A DNA stretch of 64,000 nucleotides from Candidatus Cloacimonadales bacterium (GTDB lineage Bacteria; Cloacimonadota; Cloacimonadia; Cloacimonadales; JAFGVF01). Where the stretch lies: NCBI GenBank assembly GCA_963678315.1, contig OY782781.1, positions 1,280,001 to 1,344,000 of the forward strand, written 5' to 3'. The translations under genes and the position numbers were made by a program. How positions within the stretch are numbered: position 1 is the first letter of the stretch; every line of letters starts with the position of its first letter. This document shows, one piece after another, positions 4,700 to 46,632 of the stretch. The notes beneath the pieces were generated by a model. It saw only the letters and a list, made by a program, of their open reading frames with translations. It searched no databases and had not been told where the DNA came from.

Positions 4700-5985
4700 A
4701 GAAAATTCTCTATATAGTATATTATTTTCCACCTTACCAAATTACGGACTCATTTAGAGCTACTAGAGTTGCCAAATTCCTTCCTGATAATGGAATCAAA
4801 CCTATAGTCTTAACTGGCTATGAAGGAAAACATCATTGGCAAGAAAAGACTTTAGATGAACTTCCTCCTGAAGTAGAAATACATAGAGTATCTAATCCTA
4901 TAAGTTATAAAAGAAAGAATAGTGTAAATCTGTATAAAGAAACAAGCAAACTTCAGAAGTTTAAGAATAGACTTATCATGACCCTAAAGGATATTGTGAT
5001 ATCTCCTGATTCATATATAATATGGACACTAAAGATTATACCAACAGCAATAAAGCTTATTAAAAAGCATAAAATAGACCATGTCATGATTTGCATAGGA
5101 CCTTATTCTCCAGCTTTAGCAGGATATATTCTAAAGAAATTAACAGGCGTAACTTATACATTAGATTACCGAGATGAGTGGCGTAAAAATTATAAAGGTA
5201 CTTCAGAGCTTTTTGAAAGACAGGTAAAACCTGAATCTCTTCCAAGAAGGTTCTGGAATAACTTTTGGGAAAAGAGATGTGTTGAGAATGCTAAGAATGT
5301 ATTTACTGTGTCTAAGCACATGACTGATGTTATCAAGAAGTTCTATCCCAAGCAGAAAAGAGCTTTTGCTTGTTATAATGGTTTTGTCAAAAGTGAATAT
5401 AGTCATTTAGATAGCAGTCCTAAGCCTACTACTGATATTCTCCAATTCTATTATATTGGTCATTTTGATGTAGATTCTTTATCTTACAATCCTATAAAAT
5501 TCCTGTCTGGCTATAAATCCTTTTTAAAAAATTCAGAATATAAGGCTCAGTTGCATTTATTTGGTGATATGAATGAACAAACTAAAGCTTTAATTACTAA
5601 ACTTGCACTAGATAATGACATAGTAATACATGGTAGATTTGAACATTCTACCTTACTTAAAAAGCTTATGAAAGCTGATTTTTTTGTTCAGTTCTGTTAT
5701 CCTGATTTACATCCTGAAACTCTTTCATTAAAAATGTTTGAATATGTGTTTCTCAATAAACCGATTATTTCTTTCTCTAGTGAAGTAGGGGAGATGGCTA
5801 GCTTTATTAAAGAAACAAGATCTGGCTACACATGTTGGGGATATGATGAAAACTCTATAGAGAAGTTGTTTCATAAGATTATTGAATTCCCTAAAGAAGA
5901 ACTTTTTTCTCCAGAACGTAAAGAAATCATTGAAAAATATAACTTTGAAAAGATTGTTAGCTTTATGGCTAGCAAATTGAAGTAG
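4696..5985 (+). CDS. Glycosyltransferase family 4-like
   Basis: MKKILYIVYYFPP start, LDYRDEW, KMFEY..LNKPI. ATGA overlap with the upstream stop. Confidence 0.8.
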   Translation: MKKILYIVYYFPPYQITDSFRATRVAKFLPDNGIKPIVLTGYEGKHHWQEKTLDELPPEVEIHRVSNPISYKRKNSVNLYKETSKLQKFKNRLIMTLKDIVISPDSYIIWTLKIIPTAIKLIKKHKIDHVMICIGPYSPALAGYILKKLTGVTYTLDYRDEWRKNYKGTSELFERQVKPESLPRRFWNNFWEKRCVENAKNVFTVSKHMTDVIKKFYPKQKRAFACYNGFVKSEYSHLDSSPKPTTDILQFYYIGHFDVDSLSYNPIKFLSGYKSFLKNSEYKAQLHLFGDMNEQTKALITKLALDNDIVIHGRFEHSTLLKKLMKADFFVQFCYPDLHPETLSLKMFEYVFLNKPIISFSSEVGEMASFIKETRSGYTCWGYDENSIEKLFHKIIEFPKEELFSPERKEIIEKYNFEKIVSFMASKLK

Positions 5986-5993
5986 GAGACGAC

Positions 5994-6992
5994 ATGAATA
6001 TTTTAATAATCCATACTTGGGGAATTGGAGATATGATAATGTTCTCTCCCATATTAAAAGCTATTCAACAAAATATAAGCAATAGCAACATAGACTTTTT
6101 GATTACTTCAAAAGCAGCCTCATTCCCAATAGCTAAGTGTAAGAACATTAATAAAATATACTTTTGTGAGAATTCTATACAATCTTTTGTAAAGAAAGCT
6201 CTTGAACTAAGATCAACTAATTATGACTATATTTATGTTACAACTGGAGTAACTCCTTGGAAATCAGCTTTGTTTCTATCTTTGCTGAGAAGTAAAAACA
6301 AGATTGGTGAGTATAGAGAAAGGAAGTTACCTTTTATTTTTACTAAACAATACAAGTTCCAAAAGACAGAACATAAAATAGTTACCAATAGTCTTCTATT
6401 TTCTGATTTACTTAGCCAAGGAAAGGTTGAAAACAAGCCAGTATTTTGTTTAGATGATTCTGATAGGACTTTTGCTGAAGACTACCTCATAGAAAAAGCA
6501 TTTGATAAATCAAGAAAACTGTTCGGTATCCATCCTGGTTGTAATCAAAAGTATTCTTTTAAACGCTGGCCTCTTGAACACTATATTGAGCTGATTAAAA
6601 AACTACAAAGAAGAGAAGATATAGATATTATTGTCTTTATTGGTCCTGATGAGAAAGATATTGGTGCTAAAATTAATCAAGCGACCGGTGTTCATTGCAC
6701 TAATAACCTGAATATGTTTCAGACAGCATCACTTCTAGAAAAATGTCATTACTTCTTAAATAGTGATTCTGGTCTTGGCCATGTTGCAGCATGTTTTGAT
6801 GTTGAATTGTTTATTATCTTTGGTCCATCTAATGAGAAAGTAAACGCACCAATTTCAGATAAATGTCATATTCTTAGAGGAAAAGTTGCTCCTCCTCCAA
6901 TAAGCGAATACCATAATCTTACCCAACCACCAAAGTGTTTAACTGAGTTTTATCCTGAAGAAGTTTATTCTATTATAGAAAAGTATATATGA
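5994..6992 (+). CDS. Glycosyltransferase family 9 (ADP-heptose:LPS heptosyltransferase-like)
   Basis: GIGDMIM, GIHPG...KRWP, DSGLGHVAA and IFGPS motifs. Confidence 0.85.
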   Translation: MNILIIHTWGIGDMIMFSPILKAIQQNISNSNIDFLITSKAASFPIAKCKNINKIYFCENSIQSFVKKALELRSTNYDYIYVTTGVTPWKSALFLSLLRSKNKIGEYRERKLPFIFTKQYKFQKTEHKIVTNSLLFSDLLSQGKVENKPVFCLDDSDRTFAEDYLIEKAFDKSRKLFGIHPGCNQKYSFKRWPLEHYIELIKKLQRREDIDIIVFIGPDEKDIGAKINQATGVHCTNNLNMFQTASLLEKCHYFLNSDSGLGHVAACFDVELFIIFGPSNEKVNAPISDKCHILRGKVAPPPISEYHNLTQPPKCLTEFYPEEVYSIIEKYI

Positions 6993-6995
6993 AGC

Positions 6996-8144
6996 TTAAG
7001 ACCTAAGAGTTGACCAAGTAGCAACTTGTTTTCCTGTTAGAAATCTGTTAAATGCTAGAATAGAACATAAGAACATCACAACAAAGTAACCTGGAAGTTT
7101 GGTTAATTTCTTAAGAGGGCTTTTGTTGGATATTGCTAAATCTAAAGAACCTATTCCATAGAAAATAACTTGTAGCAGGAATACAATAGTGAAGAAACTT
7201 ACTTTAAATTCAACAAGAAAAGCATTGCTTACGAACATTCCAATAACAAATAAGAAGAATAACCATCTAAGAATCTTATGTGAAATTAAAGAAAATGAAG
7301 CATAAGGATTAGAAAATGGATTTAATAAACTTGCATGTCTGAAGGTAGCAAACCATTCTCTAGAAATGATTCTAATCTTCCTTTTGAACTCATCTTTATT
7401 TTCTTCTGAAACTTCTTCTTCTACAATCGCTTTTGGTTCGTATTTAGCATTATATCCTTTTTGAAGTGTTATCAAAGTCCTTTCATAATCATCTACAGAA
7501 CTTGGGTGTATCTGAGTGAATAGCTCTCTTTTTATTAAGAAGATTGAACCATTAGCTACAATGATTGATTTTGTCTTAGATTCACTATCTCTAATTGCAT
7601 TCTCATATTTCCAGTAAAGTCCCTCTCCAGAAGAATTTCCATCCTTAGCAAAATATCTTAACTGGCCAGCCACTAAACCTGTTTTCTCATCATCTTCAAT
7701 CTTATTCACTAAGTGCTTAATTGCATCAGGTCTAAAAAGAGAATTAGCATCTGTAGAAAGCACATAATCACAATCTAAAGTCGGCTCTACCATATTGTGG
7801 CCAGATGGTTTACCTCTTCTAGGTTTTTGAACAGCTAAAGAAACATTGCTATGTTGTAAAGCGTATTTTTCAACTATTGAATTTGTATTATCTTCAGAAT
7901 CATCAGAAATAACTAGGATTTTTATCTTATCTTTTGGGTAATCTAAAGCAATAAAAGATTCAATCTTTTCTGCAATTACATCTTCTTCATTAAAAGCAGG
8001 GCATAGCACTACTATGCTAGGTGTGTTCTTGCATTGAGATACTTCTTTATCTTTACAAAATCTTGAAATTATATTAATTAAAATTGGGTATAAAACTATA
8101 TGATAAACTAATAAAGTCAGTGAAATCCAAAATATATATGTCAT
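6996..8144 (-). CDS. Glycosyltransferase family 2 (CesA-like), membrane-anchored
   Basis: PAFNEE, SDDSED, TDAN, GEGLYWKYE, HKILRW. Converges on the GT9 gene. Confidence 0.85.
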   Translation of the reverse strand: MTYIFWISLTLLVYHIVLYPILINIISRFCKDKEVSQCKNTPSIVVLCPAFNEEDVIAEKIESFIALDYPKDKIKILVISDDSEDNTNSIVEKYALQHSNVSLAVQKPRRGKPSGHNMVEPTLDCDYVLSTDANSLFRPDAIKHLVNKIEDDEKTGLVAGQLRYFAKDGNSSGEGLYWKYENAIRDSESKTKSIIVANGSIFLIKRELFTQIHPSSVDDYERTLITLQKGYNAKYEPKAIVEEEVSEENKDEFKRKIRIISREWFATFRHASLLNPFSNPYASFSLISHKILRWLFFLFVIGMFVSNAFLVEFKVSFFTIVFLLQVIFYGIGSLDLAISNKSPLKKLTKLPGYFVVMFLCSILAFNRFLTGKQVATWSTLRS

Positions 8145-8384
8145 AAATAATCCTTTTCTTTCAGTTATTCTAAAAACATATAGATATTAAGACTGTCAAG
8201 TTTTTATCAGAAGCTAAGCATAATCATCTATTTAATCAAATAAATACTATGACTGAAATGCAATTGATTGTCTATTTTGAGGTAATCGCTTTTATATAAA
8301 GAGGGGGTAAGCAATATTACAACTAACAAGGAAGGAATATAAGATATTTCCTTCCTCATAAAAGCTCCTTGTGGAAAAAGTTAA

Positions 8385-37314: not shown

Positions 37315-40101
37315 TTATTTTGATAAAAGAACTTTTACTGGTGTATTATCGTTTAAATTTAGTGATTTCACGAAATAAACACCAGAAGCAACATTCTTGT
37401 TAAAATCATCTTTACCATTCCAATTAACCTGATGAACTCCTTCATTATATGGATATTCTACTATTGTCTTTATAAGTTGTCCTTTTACATTATAAATTTC
37501 AAAAGTAACACTCTTAGGTGACTTAACATAATAAGAAATTGTAACTGTAGGATTAAATGGGTTTGGATAAGTTGATTTAATCCCCTCAGATATAATTATT
37601 GGGGGAGTGTCATTGTTTGGAATCTCAAATTGCACAAAGACAGGTCCATAGTTAGTGTAAGAATTATCCAATTCAATGAACTTAATCCAGTAGAATAATT
37701 GACCTGTTGCGTTAATGATTTCCTCATCATTGAAAGTATAGGTGTGAGTATATGGTAAATTGTGAGCAGGGATAAATGTTTCAAGCATTGTAGCTGTATT
37801 TAGATCATTGCTGTTATTGCGATAAACTCTATAGCCTGAACCATTGCTTTCTGATTGGACTGTCCAGTTCAAAGCAACTGAAGATGTGGAGGTTGCCATG
37901 GCATTGAAAGAGGAAAGTTCAACTGGAAGTGTTTGATTTTCTAAGCCAATAGTTAAGTTACCTCTAGTTGCTTTCGCATTTTCTGGGAAAGTATAAACGT
38001 AAGTTGCACTTCTAATATTACCTGACAAATTACTTGATGTTGCTGTTGAAACTTTACTACCACCTTCAAATAGAACAGGAGTTTGACTTAATCCAACCCA
38101 ATCATGGTTTGCATCATCATCAGCATCCCAATAAAAAGTGATTGTCTTTTCTCTATTATCAGTGCTAGCATCATCTATATTTCCAGTTAAAGTCCATGAT
38201 CTGTTTATATAAGTTGGGTATAACGATGAAAGGCTAGTTGATGAAGAGTAGTTTTCAATATTAAAGTCAGTTTTTGGCCATACAAGATGCTTTACTGCTG
38301 GTGAATAAATACCATCAACTGTGACATTATTTGCGCCAGTATAGTTTCCTGATGTTACAGTAAGAGTTCCATTAATAGTCAAAGTGTCAGGTAATGTAAC
38401 TCCAGATGAATTATCTATAGTCAAATTATAAACTGAGCTTAAACCACTTGGGAGAGATTGACTAGTTGTACCATTAAAAGTGATAGTGGAATTAGTTTCT
38501 CCAATTAATGTAGCAGATTGTCCAATATTTAAAGTTCCTGTTATTTCTAGAGAACCATTTCCTGCAATAATCAAATCATCTCCAGATTCATTTTCAATGT
38601 TCAAAACACCTCCAGAGGCTACTGCTAGATTACCCTCTACAGTTGTAGAGCTTATAAAGGCAGACTTGCCATTAGCAAGGGTAATAGTATCTCCTGAAAG
38701 GACTTTAATTGAAACAGAATTAGTGTAATCTGGTTTAATTACTGAAGTTGTATATGTACCATTCTCAGTTGAAGAATTTTCCCAGTTAGATACAGTTGAA
38801 AAAGCTCCTGAGTTTTTTGATTTGAAATAAAATATTGAGGAAGGAGAACTTTGTAAAGTAGGGTAATCGGTTGTAAAATCCCAGACATTATTATCCCAAT
38901 TAGGGTAAGAAGTAGCATTTGATAACTGACTTGATGTTTGTGAAGTACCATAAGTATTATCATCATTTGTACCAGTGATTGCAGAAGTATCTAAGTAGTA
39001 GCTGTCTTCTAATGAACCTATTGCATTTGTTCCACCTAAGCCCGGAGGTAACTTTCCTTCAACTCTTCCTGTAATAGGGCCATATCCTCCTTGCCAAGAA
39101 GAAGAACCAATATTTTGAGTAACATTGCTTGTTGAATAAGTTCTAAAAATAGCTCCACCAATAGAACAACCAGCAACACCTCCGACTCTGTCTCCTCCTG
39201 ATACGTCACCAAGGGAAAAACTGTCTTGGGTTAGTCCATTCTCGTTACAACCTACTAAACCTCCATATTTAATATTATATGGATTATTATTATCACCAGA
39301 ATTTAATGATTGATTATTAGGATGAGTTGAAGAAACCGTTACATCAGCCCAACAATACCTAACAATTGGAACAACTTGTTTTCTTTGGCTATTATTTGCT
39401 CCTACTAAGCCTCCTGTAGCACCAAAACCTGCAACTGTACCACCATTAACATAACATTTGTCTACAATTACTAACTTGCCTTGTCTTTGATTCGGCAAAT
39501 CTACTTTGCCAATCAATGAACCCGTTGCTCGTTTACCCTTGATATTAACATTTGTTAAACCAAGATTATTTATATATATATCTGAGCTATTACTGGCATT
39601 CGAGGTAGTAGATCCATTAGTTACAAATCCAAAAAGTCCAACAAAGTTCTCACCATTTGCTGGGAAAGTTGTATTGTTTGAAGAGTCTGCTAATCTATTT
39701 ATGTATAAATTTGAGATAACATAACCTCCGCCATCAAAATTTCCATGAAAAGGACTTGTTTCATCTCCAATAGGATCCCATCCTTTACTAACCTCCCACA
39801 TTTTAGTCCATCCATTCTCGGTGTCAGGTGTGTTTGTATTTCCATCCTGTGAACAATAATATGCATAACCATCGGTATATTCAACAATATCGCCTGTGTT
39901 ATATGTTCCAACTGTATATGTGTTTATAGTATTAGGATTAGTGTCTTCAAGATTGATACCTGTAATTAGAGTATAGTCACCTCCTAGATTATCTCGTATA
40001 TCCCAAAGATCCTCTACTGTAGAGACATTTATTGCATTAAGTTGACTTGTAAACAGAAGAGTAGTAATAAAAATAATAACTCTATATAACCATTTTGCCA
40101 T
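37315..40101 (-). CDS. Large secreted protein: GLUG-like repeats, CBM5/12-like insert, beta-rich stalk, FlgD-Ig/T9SS-like C-terminal domain
   Basis: Signal peptide, GWDPIG..F.GNFDGGG, (V/Y)GGLVG repeats, TLPVELSSF, YPNPFNP...IYNVKGQLI...WNGKD...VASGVYF. ATG 40101 follows GGAGG. Confidence 0.75.
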   Translation of the reverse strand: MAKWLYRVIIFITTLLFTSQLNAINVSTVEDLWDIRDNLGGDYTLITGINLEDTNPNTINTYTVGTYNTGDIVEYTDGYAYYCSQDGNTNTPDTENGWTKMWEVSKGWDPIGDETSPFHGNFDGGGYVISNLYINRLADSSNNTTFPANGENFVGLFGFVTNGSTTSNASNSSDIYINNLGLTNVNIKGKRATGSLIGKVDLPNQRQGKLVIVDKCYVNGGTVAGFGATGGLVGANNSQRKQVVPIVRYCWADVTVSSTHPNNQSLNSGDNNNPYNIKYGGLVGCNENGLTQDSFSLGDVSGGDRVGGVAGCSIGGAIFRTYSTSNVTQNIGSSSWQGGYGPITGRVEGKLPPGLGGTNAIGSLEDSYYLDTSAITGTNDDNTYGTSQTSSQLSNATSYPNWDNNVWDFTTDYPTLQSSPSSIFYFKSKNSGAFSTVSNWENSSTENGTYTTSVIKPDYTNSVSIKVLSGDTITLANGKSAFISSTTVEGNLAVASGGVLNIENESGDDLIIAGNGSLEITGTLNIGQSATLIGETNSTITFNGTTSQSLPSGLSSVYNLTIDNSSGVTLPDTLTINGTLTVTSGNYTGANNVTVDGIYSPAVKHLVWPKTDFNIENYSSSTSLSSLYPTYINRSWTLTGNIDDASTDNREKTITFYWDADDDANHDWVGLSQTPVLFEGGSKVSTATSSNLSGNIRSATYVYTFPENAKATRGNLTIGLENQTLPVELSSFNAMATSTSSVALNWTVQSESNGSGYRVYRNNSNDLNTATMLETFIPAHNLPYTHTYTFNDEEIINATGQLFYWIKFIELDNSYTNYGPVFVQFEIPNNDTPPIIISEGIKSTYPNPFNPTVTISYYVKSPKSVTFEIYNVKGQLIKTIVEYPYNEGVHQVNWNGKDDFNKNVASGVYFVKSLNLNDNTPVKVLLSK

Positions 40102-40172
40102 CTTTTCCTCCAAAATTAATTTTATCTAAGTATAAATTATAACTTACTTAAATACTAGTCAATGTTTATTAT

Positions 40173-40226: not shown

Positions 40227-40631
40227 TTAGTCGATTGTAATCTGCTTTGCAGGCTCAATTTCTTTCTTCTTGATATCAAGAGTTAGAACGCCATTGTCAA
40301 GTTTAGCCTTGATGTCGCTGTTTAAACAGCTATTCGGTAAGGTTAATGTTCTTGAATAAGAACCACTGTAACGTTCTTCTCTATGAACAGTACCTTCATC
40401 TACCTTTTTTTCTTCAGTTTTTGAAGCAGAGATAGTAAGTTGGTTGTTCTTAACTGAAATTTTAACATCTTCTTTCTTGTACCCAGGAAGATCTGCCTTT
40501 ATAATGAATCCATTATCTTTCTCAATAATGTCAAGAGCCATTCTTCTTGAGTTATCACTCTCGAATCCATTCCACAATTCATCAAACAATGACCATGCAG
40601 GTGAGTAATTTCTTGTTCTTAATAAATTCAT
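40227..40631 (-). CDS. Small heat shock protein (Hsp20/alpha-crystallin)
   Basis: DLPGYKKEDVKI, ERYSGSYSRTLTLP, AKLDNGVLTL. ATG 40631 follows GGAGG. Confidence 0.92.
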   Translation of the reverse strand: MNLLRTRNYSPAWSLFDELWNGFESDNSRRMALDIIEKDNGFIIKADLPGYKKEDVKISVKNNQLTISASKTEEKKVDEGTVHREERYSGSYSRTLTLPNSCLNSDIKAKLDNGVLTLDIKKKEIEPAKQITID

Positions 40632-40696
40632 TTTTTCCTCCATAAGATTAATTTCACTTATATATTAAATGGAAAATTATATAAAGCAAATAAAAA

Positions 40697-40811: not shown

Positions 40812-40850
40812 TTGACACTTAATGGTATTCAGGTATTGTTATACCAGAAT
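40812..40850 (+). promoter_or_regulatory. Sigma70 promoter of rrf2 with overlapping palindromic operator
   Basis: TTGACA 40812-40817, TATTGT 40834-40839. Palindrome ATTCAGGTAT-TGTT-ATACCAGAAT (40827-40850), 9/10 arm pairs. Confidence 0.7.
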
Positions 40851-40869: not shown

Positions 40870-41268
40870 ATGAGTAAATTACTAAATCTTTCAGAAGGAA
40901 CTTACTTGGCTTTACATGGACTAGTCTTGATTGCTAATAAGCAACCAGAAAGAATAAGTATTAAGTATATTGCGGAACACTTAGACGCTTCTATGAATCA
41001 TTTAGCTAAGATTTTCCAGAAGCTTAGTAAAGCTGGTATAGTTAACTCTATAAGAGGTCCACAAGGTGGTTTTGAATTGAATAGAGACCCGAAATACATA
41101 TCCTTTTTAGAGATTATTGAGCTTTTTGAAGGAACAATAGAGGTAGAAGGTTGTCCTTTTGGAAAGAGCAAATGTCCATTTAGATCATGTATTGTTGATG
41201 GTAAAGTATTTGAGAGTACAAAAGAAATATATAATAGATTCAAAGAAATGACATTAGCAGACTTTTAA
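40870..41268 (+). CDS. Rrf2-family transcriptional regulator with three-Cys Fe-S motif
   Basis: HLAKIFQKLSKAGIVNSIRGPQGGF, ISFLEIIELFEG, CPFGKSKCPFRSC. Likely start ATG 40870 after AAGGA. Confidence 0.9.
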   Translation: MSKLLNLSEGTYLALHGLVLIANKQPERISIKYIAEHLDASMNHLAKIFQKLSKAGIVNSIRGPQGGFELNRDPKYISFLEIIELFEGTIEVEGCPFGKSKCPFRSCIVDGKVFESTKEIYNRFKEMTLADF

Positions 41269-41282
41269 ATTTTTTTAAGTAT

Positions 41283-41306
41283 AATTAGGTAAAGCAGTAC
41301 CAGAAT
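41283..41306 (+). promoter_or_regulatory. Second copy of the putative Rrf2 operator
   Basis: AATTAGGTAAAGCAGTACCAGAAT, 17/24 identical to 40827-40850; overlaps TATAAT at 41280-41285. Confidence 0.65.
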
Positions 41307-41328
41307 AATTTAATAAAGGTTTAATAAT

Positions 41329-41682
41329 ATGAAAATAGCAAATTACAGAGAAGAGAAAGCCGCAATGAATGTTCATAAGGTGGATGTAAAGAAAGTGTAT
41401 GATAGTAAGAACGCTCTCATGAACCATATAACCTTGCAAGCAGGTGAGAGTCTTATTCCTCATATCACACCAGTTGATGCAGTCTTCTATATTTTAGAAG
41501 GAAATCCTACAGTTATGATTGATAATAAAGATTATCTAGCTAAGCAAGACGATGTAATTGAGTCACCAAAGAATATCATACATTGCCTGTCTAATAAATC
41601 AGATAAGCCAGCAAGAATTTTAGTTACTAAACTTCCTAAACCAACAACAAAAACAATATTCCCAAGCATTACAGACAAATAA
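41329..41682 (+). CDS. Cupin domain protein
   Basis: ITLQAGESLIPHITPVDAVFYILEG...PKNIIHCLSN. Confidence 0.85.
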   Translation: MKIANYREEKAAMNVHKVDVKKVYDSKNALMNHITLQAGESLIPHITPVDAVFYILEGNPTVMIDNKDYLAKQDDVIESPKNIIHCLSNKSDKPARILVTKLPKPTTKTIFPSITDK

Positions 41683-41691
41683 GAGGTATAG

Positions 41692-42924
41692 ATGAAATAT
41701 TTCGAAAGTAGTGATACATTGAAAGCTATAGTTGATAAATATCCGGAGACTATCCCTGTTTTTACTTCAAACGGATTTTCTCAAATGGGAGATGCTGAAA
41801 AGCGAGATAAGTTTGCAAGCTCAATTAGTTTGAAGATGGCTTTAACTTTGAAACAACTTAATTATGATACTTTTGAAAGACTACTAGTTGAAGCAATAGA
41901 AAGTAATAATTCTACTGTTGATGCTACTATTGCAACAAGTTCTAAGAAAAGAAACAAGCAAAGTTTATCAATTATGGGAGCCTTACCTTGTCCGGTTAGA
42001 ATTCCACTACTTGAGAAAATGATTACTTTTACCGAAGACTTTGAAGCAAGCAGTTCTTATGTATTAAATACGGAGTTAAAAGCAGCCTCTATGGGAGTTG
42101 ATTGGATTGAAGAAAACATAAAAGGAATTAGTGACCCTGAAAAGTTACCAGACTTGTTTATATCTGCTGGTTTCGATATGTTCTTCGATAAAGATAAGTT
42201 TGGTAAATTTAAAGCTATGGGCGTTTTTGAAGATTTCTCAGGATTAGACACTTATAATGAATCCTTTGCTGACATAGAATTAAAAGATCCACGAGGTCAT
42301 TTATCAATGATAGGGGTTGTACCAGCTGTCTTTCTCATAAACACTAAAGAGTTAGGGGATTTGCCAATGCCTACAAAGTGGAGTGATTTAATGAAAGCAG
42401 AATTTGAGAACAGAGTTTCACTACCAGTAGGCGACTTTGATTTATTTAATGGCATACTTCTTAACTTCTATAAGAATTATGGTGATGAAGGTGTTAGGAA
42501 GTTAGGAAGAAGTCTATTAGAGTCTATGCACCCATCTCAAATGGTTAGAAGTGATAGAAAGAGCACTAACCGTCCAATCATCACAATAATGCCATATTTC
42601 TTTACTAAGATGACTAAGCATGGTGGACCTATGCAGGCTATCTGGCCAGAAGATGGTGCTATTATTAGTCCAATCTTTTTATTATCAAAAAAGAGTAAGC
42701 AAAACGCATTACAAGAAGTAGTTAATTTCTTTGCATCCGAGGAAGTTGGCAAGGTTCTATCCCATAATGGATTATTCCCAACAACTAACCCTAATGTCGA
42801 TAATAGATTAGCAAAAGATAACAAGTTTATGTGGTTAGGCTGGGATTATATCTATAGCCATGATTTAACCGAGACAATTCACCATTGTGAAGAACTTTTC
42901 AACAATTCATTGAAAGGAGAATAG
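41692..42924 (+). CDS. Cytoplasmic substrate-binding-protein-like protein (Fe3+/polyamine SBP fold) with N-terminal DUF1858-like domain
   Basis: No signal peptide or lipobox. TLKAIVDKYPETIPVF..NGF N-domain; LPCPVRIP; LPMPTKWSDL, WPEDGAIISP SBP features. Confidence 0.7.
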   Translation: MKYFESSDTLKAIVDKYPETIPVFTSNGFSQMGDAEKRDKFASSISLKMALTLKQLNYDTFERLLVEAIESNNSTVDATIATSSKKRNKQSLSIMGALPCPVRIPLLEKMITFTEDFEASSSYVLNTELKAASMGVDWIEENIKGISDPEKLPDLFISAGFDMFFDKDKFGKFKAMGVFEDFSGLDTYNESFADIELKDPRGHLSMIGVVPAVFLINTKELGDLPMPTKWSDLMKAEFENRVSLPVGDFDLFNGILLNFYKNYGDEGVRKLGRSLLESMHPSQMVRSDRKSTNRPIITIMPYFFTKMTKHGGPMQAIWPEDGAIISPIFLLSKKSKQNALQEVVNFFASEEVGKVLSHNGLFPTTNPNVDNRLAKDNKFMWLGWDYIYSHDLTETIHHCEELFNNSLKGE

Positions 42925-42925
42925 C

Positions 42926-43618
42926 ATGAATCTAGTAACAGTCTCAGGTCCTCCATCATCAGGTAAAACTTCTGTGATTTTGAAGACTATAGAGTCTTTG
43001 AAGAAGCGTGGTTTAAAGGTTGCAGTAGCTAAGTTTGATTGTTTGTATACAGATGATGATATTTTATATAAGAATGCAGGAATACCAGTTAAGAAAGGTC
43101 TTTCAGGTGCTTTATGTCCTGACCATTATTTTGTAAGTAATGTTGAAGAGATAACCAATTGGGGCTTAGATAATAACTTTGATGTGCTAATCAGTGAATC
43201 TGCAGGTTTGTGTAACAGGTGTTCTCCATATATTAAAGGGATTAAAGCAATCTGTGTGATTGATAATCTTAGTGGTATTAATACTCCTAAGAAAATAGGG
43301 CCAATGCTTAAATCAGCGGATATAGTGGTTATTACTAAAGGAGATATTGTATCTCAAGCTGAAAGAGAAGTATTCGCTTCAAGAGTGAATACAGTTAATC
43401 CCAAAGCGACAATCATGAATATTAATGGTTTAACCGGTCAAGGGTCATTTGAGCTTTCTACTCTAATCTATGATGAGAAAGATAATATCAATAGCTTAAA
43501 AGGTAAGGAACTTAGATTCCCTATGCCATCAGCTCTTTGTTCTTACTGTCTAGGTGAAACTAGAATAGGGGAGTCTTATCAAATGGGTAATGTTCGTAAG
43601 ATGGATATGGATAAATAG
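42926..43618 (+). CDS. HypB/UreG/CobW-type (G3E) GTPase, Cys-rich
   Basis: GPPSSGKT (G1), ALCPDH, ESAGLCNRC (G3), TKGD (G4), INGLTGQG, C-terminal LCSYC. Confidence 0.8.
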   Translation: MNLVTVSGPPSSGKTSVILKTIESLKKRGLKVAVAKFDCLYTDDDILYKNAGIPVKKGLSGALCPDHYFVSNVEEITNWGLDNNFDVLISESAGLCNRCSPYIKGIKAICVIDNLSGINTPKKIGPMLKSADIVVITKGDIVSQAEREVFASRVNTVNPKATIMNINGLTGQGSFELSTLIYDEKDNINSLKGKELRFPMPSALCSYCLGETRIGESYQMGNVRKMDMDK

Positions 43619-43626
43619 GGGTAGCT

Positions 43627-44634
43627 ATGATTATAACAAGAGATAATATTAAAGAACAATACATATCTGATTTACTACATGAATATCCTTTCCTAGAAAG
43701 CTATTTTGCAGATAATAACTTTGATTACAAGACAAGAAAAAACATAACTTTAGAAGCTTATTTTGCTGCTATTGATGAGATAGAGAAAGAAGATATGGCT
43801 ATTGATGATGAGCTGTTTTATAGTCAACTTGTTGAATATATTCAACAAATGCAAGCTTTCTTGGGCAAAGAAGAAGAGCTTGTAGAGATAGTGACAATTC
43901 TTCCAGGAACTAATAAATTCAAAGAAGCTGAGAATTTTGACAAGTTAGAGATTAAGAAGGGTGAAATAGTTTCAATTGTTGGTCCTACAGGTTCAGGAAA
44001 AAGCAGACTTCTTGCCGATATAGAATGGGTAGCTCAAGCTGATACTCCTACTTCTAGGACAATTTTAGTCAATAATGAAAAACCAGATGTTAAATGGAGA
44101 TTCTCAACCTCCGATAAGCTAGTAGCACAACTTTCTCAAAACATGAACTTCGTAATGGACTTAACAGTACATCAATTTGTTGAGTTGCATGCAGAGAGTA
44201 GGTTAGTTGAAAATCAAGAGCAGGTCATTGATAAAATCATTAGTAAGGCTAATGATTTGGCTGGCGAGAAATTCTCACCTGAAACACCAATCACAAGTTT
44301 GAGTGGTGGACAATCAAGAGCTCTCATGATTGCTGACACAGCTATTCTTAGTAAATCACCGATTATTCTTATAGATGAAATAGAGAATGCAGGCATTGAT
44401 AGAAAGCGTGCATTAAACCTTCTTTTATCAGAAGATAAGATAGTCTTAATAGCAACACATGACCCAATTCTAGCTCTACTAGCCGATAAAAGAATAGTCA
44501 TTAAGAATGGTGGAATAGATAAAGTTATTGAGACTACAGAAGAAGAAAGAAAGATTCTGTCTACACTAGAAGAATTAGATAAAACAATCCTGTCTTATAG
44601 AACAAAGCTCAGGCATGGGCAAATCCTAAAGTAA
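43627..44634 (+). CDS. Soluble ABC-family ATPase with N-terminal extension
   Basis: GPTGSGKS, LSGGQ, ILIDE, ATHD; about 90-aa N-domain (ISDLLHEYPFLESYF); no TM segments. Confidence 0.85.
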   Translation: MIITRDNIKEQYISDLLHEYPFLESYFADNNFDYKTRKNITLEAYFAAIDEIEKEDMAIDDELFYSQLVEYIQQMQAFLGKEEELVEIVTILPGTNKFKEAENFDKLEIKKGEIVSIVGPTGSGKSRLLADIEWVAQADTPTSRTILVNNEKPDVKWRFSTSDKLVAQLSQNMNFVMDLTVHQFVELHAESRLVENQEQVIDKIISKANDLAGEKFSPETPITSLSGGQSRALMIADTAILSKSPIILIDEIENAGIDRKRALNLLLSEDKIVLIATHDPILALLADKRIVIKNGGIDKVIETTEEERKILSTLEELDKTILSYRTKLRHGQILK

Positions 44635-44666
44635 TAAATTACAATTAAATAGAAAGGAGATATATT

Positions 44667-44909
44667 ATGCATGACGGTTGCAGTGGTTCCTTCCAAAATG
44701 GAATAGAAGTAGTAAACAAGGTAAGAACTATGGGTTTTTCAGAGCAATTCATGCCTGTCCCATTAAATATTAAATGTGATAACTGTGGAGACTCTTTTGA
44801 AATGGAGACTTTCGAAGCTAAATGTCCTAAGTGTGAAATGGTATATGCAGTAACTCCATGTCATGCATTCGATCCTGACAATGTGAAAGCAGCTGGAATT
44901 AACTATTAA
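44667..44909 (+). CDS. Small Cys/His-rich Zn-finger protein, HypA-like motifs
   Basis: AAGGAG RBS; MHDGC N-terminus; CDNC-x12-CPKC; TPCH. Confidence 0.75.
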   Translation: MHDGCSGSFQNGIEVVNKVRTMGFSEQFMPVPLNIKCDNCGDSFEMETFEAKCPKCEMVYAVTPCHAFDPDNVKAAGINY

Positions 44910-44954
44910 TTTAATCATAAAACAATTAACAATAAAAAAAGAACGGAGAAAAAG

Positions 44955-46556
44955 ATGAGTATGTTTTGTTATCAATGCCAAGAAACACTTGGTAATCAAG
45001 CTTGTAAATTTAACGCTGGCGCATGTGGAAAAACTGCTAAAACTGCTAACTTACAAGATGCATTAATTTATGCAATTAAAGGTTTAGCTTTAGCTTCTGA
45101 AAGTAATTATAAGAGAGAAAATGGACTTTTTATTGCTCAATGTCTTTTCGCTACTATTACAAACGCAAACTTCGATGATGAAAGAATTATTGCTCTAGCT
45201 AAAGAAGCAATACAACGCAGAGATGCTTTAAATTACAATTGTGATTGTGATTTAATTACTTGGAATGCATCTTCAGAAGAAGAATTCCTTGCAAAAGGTC
45301 AAGGTCATGGTGTTCTTGAAACAGAAAATGAAGATGTTCGTTCACTAAGAGAACTTCTTGTTTATGGTTTAAAAGGTATTGCAGCTTATGCCGATCATGC
45401 AGCTGTTCTAGGCAAAGAAGACGATACTGTCTACAAGTTCTTAATGGAAGCTTTAGCTTCAACAACCAAAGACTTATCTGTTGACGATATGATTGCAATG
45501 GTTCTTAAAGCAGGTAAATATGCAGTTACAACAATGGCACTTCTTGATGATGCAAACACTTCAACTTATGGTAATCCTGAAATTACAGAAGTAAACATTG
45601 GTGTTGGCGACAAACCTGGTATTCTCATTTCAGGTCATGACTTAAAAGATATGGAACAACTTCTTAAACAAACTGAAGGAACTGGTGTAGAAGTATATAC
45701 ACATTCAGAAATGCTTCCAGCAAACTACTATCCTGCTTTTAAAAAATACTCACATTTCCATGGTAACTATGGTAATGCTTGGTGGAAACAAGCTGAAGAG
45801 TTCACAACATTTAATGGTCCTATCTTAATGACTACAAATTGTATTACTCCAGTAAAAGAAGCTTACTCAGATAGAATTTTCACAACAGGTATGGCTGGAT
45901 ATCCTAATGTTCCACACATTGAAGAAATTGACGGTAAGAAAGATTTCTCTAAATTAATTGAGATTGCTAAGAATTGTCCAGCTCCTACAGAAATTGAAAC
46001 TGGAACTATTGTTGGTGGTTTTGCACATAGCCAAGTTATGGCATTAGCTGATAAGGTTGTTGATGCTGTTAAATCTGGTGCAATTAAGAGATTTGTTGTT
46101 ATGGCTGGTTGTGATGGCCGTCATAAAACAAGAGGTTACTTTACTGAAGTAGCAGAAGAACTTCCAAAAGATACTGTAATATTAACTGCTGGTTGTGCTA
46201 AATATCGCTACAACAAACTTAACTTAGGTGATATTGGTGGAATTCCAAGAGTTCTTGACGCTGGTCAATGTAATGATTCTTATTCATTAGCAGTGATTGC
46301 ACTAAAACTAAAAGAAGTATTTGAACTTAATGATATCAACGAATTACCAATATCATTTGATATTGCTTGGTATGAACAAAAAGCTGTTGCTGTTCTCCTC
46401 GCTCTTCTATTCTTAGGAGTTAAAGGAATCCGCTTAGGACCTACATTACCTGCTTTCTTATCACCAACAGTTGTTAATGTGCTTGTGGAAAACTTTGATA
46501 TTAAACCTACTGGAGATGTTAAGGCTGATATCGAAGCAATGATGGCTGGTAAATAA
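44955..46556 (+). CDS. hcp: Hybrid cluster protein (hydroxylamine/NO reductase, prismane)
   Basis: [62 protein letters not shown]. Confidence 0.97.
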
Positions 46557-46584
46557 TAATTTATATAAATTAATTTAATACTTG

Positions 46585-46613
46585 AGAGACACCTAATTTC
46601 TGGTGTCTCTTTT
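46585..46613 (+). terminator. Rho-independent terminator after hcp
   Basis: AGAGACACC-8nt-GGTGTCTCT then TTT. Confidence 0.75.
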
Positions 46614-46632
46614 ATATGAAATATTAGATAAA

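Follow-up and report, generated by a model that had tools for sequence, protein, structure and literature searches.

Nucleotide-driven metallochaperones are known for nickel, for cobalt or B12, for zinc and for Fe-S assembly. The described systems nearest to the one treated here are the HypA/HypB and UreE/UreG pairs and the SufBC2D complex, and single components also recall Rrf2 regulators of the NsrR/IscR type with the NsrR- or HcpR-controlled hcp regulons, binding proteins of the FbpA/PotD type and the RIC/YtfE protein. The accessible text of a 2022 review recognizes UreG, HypB, MeaB and COG0523 as the only G3E GTPase subfamilies and lists SufC as the sole ABC-type ATPase (PMC9164220). The present work concerns a seven-gene operon on the + strand (positions 40870–46556) of a 64,000-nucleotide stretch of contig OY782781.1 from a Candidatus Cloacimonadales bacterium; this stretch is termed the window. 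In order, the operon encodes an Rrf2-family regulator, a small cupin, a substrate-binding-protein-like (SBP-like) protein, a Cys-rich G3E GTPase, a soluble ABC ATPase, an 80-aa zinc-ribbon protein and the enzyme Hcp, and the four genes from the SBP-like protein to the zinc-ribbon protein are referred to as the cassette. Full-text searches of the literature collection used returned no description of it. New here are an Rrf2 operator regulon that includes unlinked hcp genes, a count of GTPase–ABC fusions, and the metal-uptake context of paralogous cassettes. The reading we favour, to which we give roughly even chances, is that of a cytoplasmic dual-NTPase module for metal or Fe-S trafficking, induced by nitrosative stress and co-regulated with Hcp.

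The GTPase (42926..43618, + strand) belongs to the G3E superfamily, with a Walker A motif GPPSSGKT at residues 8–15, the ExxG motif ESAG (91–94), the G4 motif TKGD (137–140, a variant with T for N) and a PF02492 score of 52.7 bits against a cut-off of 20.7. It resembles HypB and UreG in Walker A, ExxG and an aligned Cys/His metal motif, but its scores fall below the equivalog cut-offs of both (hypB, 48.7 versus 121.2; ureG, 27.6 versus 204.2), as they do for MeaB (20.3 versus 240.75) and ZigA (17.4 versus 600), and it has five additional invariant cysteines and a C-terminal CSYC tail. Eight Cys/His residues (C39, C64-P-D-H67, C96-x2-C99, C110 and C205-x2-C208) are invariant in 76 aligned sequences and are kept in 10 divergent paralogues of 45–68% identity. 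Among them are the three motifs CPDH, CNRC and CSYC that a first-pass annotation of the window had pointed out. CPDH aligns with the CH of M. jannaschii HypB (2hf8) and the CPH of H. pylori and K. pneumoniae UreG, and in the alignment it occupies the G3E Cys/His metal site between Walker A and Walker B, at the dimer interface. The metal-chaperone kinship proposed in that annotation is borne out by this retained site. Of 1.84 billion cluster representatives, no more than 540 match a profile of the family at E ≤ 0.001, and judged by its sequence the protein is a sharply separate, undescribed G3E subfamily. Its predicted model, with a mean pLDDT of 68 and Cys loops below 50, was not used for a fold search.

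The gene that follows (43627..44634, + strand) encodes an ABC ATPase (ABC_tran, PF00005, 62.8 bits) made up of an N-terminal domain of about 100 aa and a nucleotide-binding domain (NBD). Walker A (GPTGSGKS), signature (LSGGQ), Walker B (ILIDE) and H-loop (ATHD) sequences are invariant in 23 such ATPases. Single-chain proteins of about 505–510 aa that join the G3E and ABC parts constitute 86 of the 90 homologues of 420–2000 residues. Among the carriers are cultured species, Clostridium saccharoperbutylacetonicum, C. puniceum, C. beijerinckii (61 member sequences in one cluster) and others; two representatives of the fusion keep CPDH, CNRC and CSYC, followed by a linker and then the NBD. By the Rosetta-stone argument, these natural fusions indicate that the partner of the ABC ATPase is the GTPase rather than a membrane permease. 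We think that they are the strongest argument for a GTPase–ABC partnership, and the two NTPases are predicted to be one unit. Rare single chains that join the G3E part to DUF1858/SBP_bac_6 are also seen (P0275, 652 aa; P0338, 572 aa). These may be real fusions or read-through errors; the two genes are 1 nt apart in the window. A complex prediction for the SBP-like protein, GTPase and ABC ATPase scored 0.73, and 0.66 with the SBP-like protein replaced, and is not used as evidence either way.

An ABC ATPase that works with soluble partners in metallocofactor handling, and with no membrane domain, recalls SufBC2D as outlined in the accessible text of the 2022 review (PMC9164220). The cassette differs in that the partner adopts a type II binding-protein fold, in that a G3E GTPase accompanies the ATPase or is fused to it, and in that no SufB- or SufD-like protein was present among the cassette neighbours inspected. 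SufC is not among the NCBIfam matches listed for the ABC ATPase (25 of 147), nor among the 14 solved chains that match it at E ≤ 1e-8. Nearest of the solved chains are MJ0796 and BceA, both distant (about 54 bits). The N-terminal domain perhaps resembles DUF1858, as is suggested by sub-threshold signals: hhalign gives E 0.049 with a probability of 1% over 30 columns, and PF08984 gives matches below threshold in three of the 23 sequences, with E 0.077 at best.

The cassette is conserved well beyond the window. A scan of one genome per species gave 321 encoding loci, the best 80 of which were analysed, with gene order read by tblastn. The order SBP-like protein, GTPase, ABC ATPase, zinc-ribbon protein is complete in 66 of the 80 loci, from at least eight phyla; carriers are found in Cloacimonadota, Spirochaetota, Fermentibacterota, Clostridia, Verrucomicrobiota, Desulfobulbaceae and others. 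The other 14 comprise 13 that are truncated by a contig edge and one, from a Clostridium, that truly has no small protein. Across phyla, identity to the window proteins is an unusually high 76–93% for the GTPase, 53–67% for the SBP-like protein, 60–79% for full-length ABC ATPases and 56–80% for the small protein. An rrf2 gene adjoins the cassette in 48 of the 80 loci. The cupin (41329..41682, + strand; Cupin_2, 52.5 bits), with conserved residues H16, H33, H45, H85 and C86, is present in 24, nearly all of them from Cloacimonadota.

More divergent relatives of the cassette occur in other surroundings. In second-tier loci (L121–L133, from G380, G493, G442, G487, G499, G480, G447, G299 and G537) the GTPase is 45–68% identical to that of the window. 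At 62–68% GTPase identity, the SBP part is about 31% identical, DUF1858 and the small protein are missing, and there is no hcp within about 8 kb. A scan of 37 of the 107 open reading frames in nine such loci, chosen as immediate neighbours, revealed FecCD permeases with their own ATPase and several Peripla_BP_2 proteins, along with ZnuA, Crp regulators, a NifX-like protein, a methyltransferase and proteins of the DUF364/DUF4213 'heavy-metal chelation' type. In L127 there is no match to the SBP-like protein, and a Peripla_BP_2 gene adjoins the GTPase in the SBP position. Genome G204 has a divergent trio (L082:3423–8053) with identities of 25% (SBP), 57% (GTPase) and 52% (ABC); it is followed by a 583-aa fusion of radical SAM and Peripla_BP_2, and preceded by Peripla_BP_2 proteins and a methyltransferase. 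An in-frame TGA in the G204 GTPase match, considered as a selenocysteine codon, is a plain stop codon. Judged by these metal-uptake and chelation clusters, what the paralogues have in common is probably the handling of metals or metal chelates.

Of the 290 Clostridiaceae genomes scored, 52 have the GTPase. Two to four copies, at differing levels of identity, are present in some of them (G310, G386, G403 and G480). The presence of several copies suggests that cassettes are specialised for different cargos or clients.

The SBP-like protein (41692..42924, + strand) has a DUF1858 helical domain at the N-terminus (40 bits) followed by SBP_bac_6 (263 bits). This architecture is found in 119 of the best 120 of 2520 relatives at E ≤ 0.001. 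The predicted model (pLDDT 87) is matched by Foldseek to FbpA, FutA, AfuA, P5PA and PotD, with target-normalised template-modelling scores of 0.63–0.69 and identities of 10–16%; thus the protein is akin to binding proteins of the type II fold. Unlike FbpA and PotD, it is predicted to be cytoplasmic, carries DUF1858 at the N-terminus, has no permease and is unusually conserved across phyla. The N-terminus has no hydrophobic signal segment, as read from the sequence rather than from a signal-peptide predictor, and this agrees with the first-pass annotation, which saw no export signal. C100 and H280 are invariant. In the secondary structure of the model the invariant motifs lie at strand ends and helix starts, C100 being placed right after the first strand. 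Because these are the positions where such folds bind ligand, we infer from the model that the protein holds a specific small cargo.

NCBI and JGI name relatives of the SBP-like protein 'iron' or 'spermidine/putrescine ABC transporter substrate-binding protein', and these names, the FbpA/PotD-type fold and the FecCD permeases beside some paralogues would be expected if the cassette were part of an ordinary ABC importer with its permease encoded elsewhere. Such an importer is very improbable. Its binding protein would have no signal peptide and would carry DUF1858, many species have its ATPase and a G3E GTPase in a single chain, and the FecCD clusters near the paralogues include an ATPase and Peripla_BP_2 proteins of their own. 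Moreover, when the 1179 open reading frames beside the 80 loci were clustered, no ABC permease family was present among the 45 largest clusters, and no cluster among these with at least three transmembrane-like segments exceeded 4 of the 80 loci. The permease-less composition therefore holds well beyond the window, and the first-pass contention that this is not a complete importer stands, since trios are not routinely found beside permeases. An 'ABC transporter' link reported for Clade B Ni-CODH (carbon monoxide dehydrogenase) was considered and set aside, since the genes there encode whole NitT/TauT importers, permeases included, and belong to another system.

One locus, from Clostridium brassicae, has a split ArsP_1-type 'predicted permease' just upstream of cupin and trio (L076:8128–9350), and the second half of this permease ends in a 4Fe-4S ferredoxin domain. 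The locus lies between two hcp genes and two Crp/Fnr regulators.

The 80-aa protein (44667..44909, + strand) is without a Pfam family, and its nearest Atlas clusters consist of unnamed 80-aa proteins. It starts with an invariant M-H-[DE]-G-C, always at the true N-terminus, and has a 2xCxxC zinc ribbon and a P-C-H-A-F-D motif. An alignment of 20 sequences shows no variation in M1-H2-[DE]3 or in C37/C40/C53/C56, and the protein has eight invariant Cys/His residues in total. Three longer matches that might have been fusions look like mis-called upstream starts. The description of this protein as HypA-like in the first-pass annotation can be kept in part. The N-terminal M-H-[DE], which is like the nickel motif M-H-E of HypA, and the 2xCxxC zinc site both fit; but the scores are below the HypA cut-offs (PF01155, 22.1 versus 28.9; TIGR00100, 17.9 versus 88.1) and the sub-threshold match spans the zinc-ribbon part only. 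The protein further differs from HypA by its length of 80 aa and by the addition of Cys5 and Cys65-His66.

These features bear on a second explanation, in which the cassette delivers or sequesters nickel, or another non-iron metal, in the manner of HypA/HypB, and is co-induced with Hcp merely through a shared stress. Among solved structures the GTPase is closest to the nickel chaperones HypB and UreG, with the nickel-binding Cys/His aligned; the small protein has a HypA-like start and a HypA-like ribbon; the operon cupin has conserved histidines; and one paralogue adjoins ZnuA. However, the genome that contains the window (G000, 2.99 Mb) has no [NiFe]-hydrogenase large subunit, no nickel enzyme is linked to the cassette in the loci examined, and the regulator is an Fe-S-type Rrf2 protein, not a nickel sensor. 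The many extra invariant cysteines (seven in the GTPase) better fit an Fe-S or thiophilic site. The cassette pair also departs from HypA/HypB in that an ABC ATPase and a protein of binding-protein fold invariably accompany it. The nickel explanation is therefore considered unlikely.

The first gene of the operon, rrf2 (40870..41268, + strand), encodes a protein that scores 97.3 bits against PF02082 and 96.6 against the general Rrf2 model TIGR00738 (cut-off 73.3). It is below the equivalog cut-offs for NsrR (41.9 versus 182), IscR (56.7 versus 207.55) and RirA (45 versus 193), and likewise below that of the SUF regulator. Cysteines 95, 102 and 107 are conserved at 98–100% in 49 sequences. A 24-bp palindrome, with the consensus ATTTAGGTAT-N4-ATACCTAAAT and located 3′ of a TTGACA box, is found in 44 of 48 regions upstream of rrf2, and the TTGACA box is directly 5′ of it in most related loci. 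In the window, a sigma-70-like promoter site (TTGACA, 16 nt, TATTGT; 40812..40839, + strand; 10/12, the top-scoring site in the region) is overlapped at its -10 box by operator 1, ATTCAGGTATTGTTATACCAGAAT (40827..40850), which has 27.6 bits and no mismatches to the pattern. Operator 2 lies in the rrf2–cupin spacer (41283..41306; 21.9 bits, two mismatches) and overlaps a TATAAT at 41280–41285.

A position weight matrix built from the 44 sites was used to scan the whole window genome. Just two sites reach 20 bits or more, and both are the ones in the operon; the third-best site has 13.9 bits. Because the only two strong sites genome-wide are in the operon, the Rrf2 regulator appears, from these predicted sites, to be dedicated to it in this genome. 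The arrangement recalls NsrR, with a three-Cys Rrf2 protein, a palindromic operator over the promoter and hcp in the regulon. NsrR controls hcp in proteobacteria and the published NsrR box is gATGyAT-N5-ATrCATc, according to the accessible text (PMC1274295). The cassette operator is unlike that box, and in the window genome the regulon is apparently one operon.

The regulon reaches further in spirochaetes. Eight spirochaete genomes with an rrf2-headed cassette and an unlinked hcp were tested, and in five of these (G234, G237, G238, G239 and G240) a predicted operator of 20.5–28.8 bits lies about 115–140 nt upstream of hcp. In G238 the operator precedes two of three hcp copies, and in the 4.8-Mb genome of G234 the two best matches to the pattern lie at the promoters of the cassette and of hcp. 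A site with a weaker likeness to the operator (16.5 bits) is found about 470 nt upstream of hcp in a member of the Fermentibacteraceae (G235; L086:620–643), whose cassette is without an adjacent rrf2.

Gene adjacency also ties the cassette to hcp. In the 80 loci, hcp adjoins the cassette in 28, and in 21 of the 43 that are well flanked, meaning that the sequence continues for 2.5 kb or more on each side. The well-flanked counts for the separate groups are 15/15 for Cloacimonadota, 3/19 for Spirochaetota, 0/5 for Fermentibacterota and 2/2 for Clostridia. Clostridial loci have two flanking hcp genes and use Crp/Fnr-type regulators in place of rrf2, and a Desulfobulbaceae locus has a divergent hcp with NrfH-like and multihaem cytochrome genes. 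In the window's phylum, 25 of the 28 GTPase-bearing genomes have hcp, and in 23 of these 25 the two genes are within about 4 kb; outside the phylum, Hcp is encoded by each of the 15 cassette-bearing genomes that were tested. The operator on unlinked hcp and the adjacency in several phyla argue that the tie to Hcp and to N-oxide stress is real and, as read from these gene arrangements, arose under different regulators. The linkage to hcp noted at the outset is thus upheld.

The first-pass annotation went further and proposed that the soluble proteins build or repair the hybrid cluster of Hcp or other NO-damaged centres. A dedicated maturase would assemble or re-assemble the hybrid [4Fe-2S-2O] cluster. 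It would account for hcp as the last gene of the operon, both here and in every well-flanked Cloacimonadota locus, for the operator shared with unlinked hcp in spirochaetes and for the two hcp copies that flank the trio in two Clostridium loci, and literature searches turned up no Hcp maturation factor. In a preprint on CODH and HCP neighbourhoods, the accessible text describes no clear pattern for HCP (10.1101/2025.09.14.676152). Yet Hcp does not depend on the cassette. When 232 genomes of the window's phylum were scored, the GTPase was present in 28 and hcp in 176; hcp was found in 151 of the 204 genomes without the GTPase, and one family has hcp in 83 and the GTPase in none of 98 genomes. 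Adjacency is rare in the well-flanked loci of Spirochaetota and Fermentibacterota, as the above counts show, and the paralogous cassettes lie in metal-uptake clusters that have no hcp.

The Hcp of the window is also an ordinary class I enzyme (44955..46556, + strand; TIGR01703, 739.7 versus 360.8; NF003658, 820 bits), with 808 bits to D. vulgaris Hcp (1E2U). The cluster ligands align identically with those of 1E2U: H244, E268 and C312, numbered by the alignment, are the same, as are the motifs around C406, C434, C459 and E494. Because hcp is widespread in cassette-less genomes, the cassette is not a dedicated Hcp maturase, and we hold the maturase proposal to be quite improbable. The profiling against hcp that had been suggested gave a divided answer: the adjacency and the shared operator favour a link, but the many hcp genes in genomes without the GTPase do not, and the part of the earlier proposal that was specific to building the hybrid cluster is not supported. 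Its other part, repair of damaged centres, may still apply.

A further explanation is that the cassette processes NO adducts. It would dismantle dinitrosyl-iron complexes or S-nitrosothiols, the SBP cleft holding the adduct and the NTPases driving its release. In its favour are a regulon in common with the NO reductase Hcp, the Cys-rich proteins, and the occurrence of DUF1858 in N-oxide-responsive genes of Thermus and Bradyrhizobium; the portions of the literature available place DUF1858 in nitrate-respiration, NO-regulon and SufT-fusion settings (PMC6282519, PMC6710368, PMC4982691). The cassette also shares a proposed nitrosative-stress role with RIC/YtfE, but is without the hemerythrin-like di-iron domain of that protein. 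RIC itself gives no match to the RIC model in the window genome and is found in only 1 of the 232 genomes of the phylum, so that the niche could be seen as open. The ScdA_N domain of RIC is, as we assume, of the same superfamily as DUF1858. An anticorrelation between RIC and the cassette was considered and rejected as uninformative, since RIC is nearly absent phylum-wide, with or without the cassette. In addition, the metal-uptake and chelation clusters of the paralogues point to a metal cargo in general. NO-adduct processing thus has only a small chance of being the function.

The trafficking module that we favour would work as follows. The Rrf2 protein probably holds an Fe-S cluster on its three conserved cysteines, sits on the two palindromic operators over the promoters and represses the operon. 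By analogy with NsrR, damage to the cluster by NO or redox stress would release the operators and switch on hcp and the metal module together. The G3E GTPase, with its Cys/His site at the dimer interface and five further invariant cysteines, would then act as a unit with the ABC ATPase, which would have no membrane partner. The SBP-like protein may hold the cargo in its strictly conserved cleft, which includes Cys100 and His280, and the 80-aa HypA-like protein, with its MH[DE]GC hook and zinc ribbon, may pass the metal on. Its most likely task would be to provide or salvage iron or Fe-S fragments for centres damaged in nitrosative stress, and Hcp would be one beneficiary among others. The N-oxide and Fe-S settings in which DUF1858 has been described also speak for this model.

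Several points weigh against this model. The operator threshold of 14/20 was picked after the sites had been inspected, and in three of the eight spirochaete genomes (G232, G233 and G241) there is no operator before hcp. The Fermentibacterota quartet has rrf2 beside none of 10 loci, as well as no hcp beside the five that are well flanked. Four Clostridiaceae loci have no small protein. Binding of the SBP-like and small proteins to the NTPases is suggested by synteny, and the HypA/HypB-like features fit nickel as well as iron. Finally, co-occurrence at the genome level is weak evidence, Hcp being common in anaerobes (176 of the 232 genomes of the phylum).

A broader proposal, which we hold tentatively and at somewhat less than even chances, is that the GTPase represents a fifth G3E branch, probably Fe-S-bearing, that is tied to an ABC ATPase. 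The assembly could be looked at as an ABC transporter turned inward, which moves a metal or metal cluster between proteins inside the cell; one version would have come to lie in an NO-stress regulon with Hcp, and sister versions downstream of metal-chelate importers. If this is true, G3E GTPase, ABC ATPase and cytoplasmic binding-protein fold together would be a new architecture for moving metal inside the cell. The Rrf2 regulon shared with Hcp would provide a handle on two questions of long standing, namely how metal centres are guarded or rebuilt in anaerobes exposed to nitrosative stress, and what Hcp works with. Cultured solventogenic Clostridium species that are genetically tractable carry the fused forms, which makes the idea testable.

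With respect to the anatomy of the operon, the seven co-directional reading frames lie where they were first placed, with gaps of 60, 9, 1, 8, 32 and 45 nt in operon order, and they run from one promoter to one terminator. The initial family assignments hold in Pfam and NCBIfam scans. The intrinsic terminator (46584..46611, + strand), which had been predicted and was located 3′ of hcp, has a 10-bp stem, an 8-nt loop and a U-run. Folding of 46560–46630 gives a ΔG of -19.5 kcal/mol with a z of -5.1, and the hairpin is absent from the consensus-scan list. The statement that no gene of the operon has transmembrane segments is correct for six of the seven families by a crude hydropathy count; the seventh, Hcp, has one internal hydrophobic stretch in what is a known soluble enzyme.

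NifU- and NifS-like genes (the latter of the class V aminotransferase type) are found on the opposite strand 2–4 kb upstream in four spirochaete loci, two of which are L068 and L072, with the genes at about 4900–8300. They may indicate a link to Fe-S assembly or the shared ancestry of those genomes. Upstream of the operon in the window are two reading frames on the - strand. The one at 40227–40643 encodes 138 aa and resembles a small heat-shock (Hsp20-type) protein by sequence, and the other, at 37315–40113, encodes 932 aa with an N-terminal hydrophobic segment.

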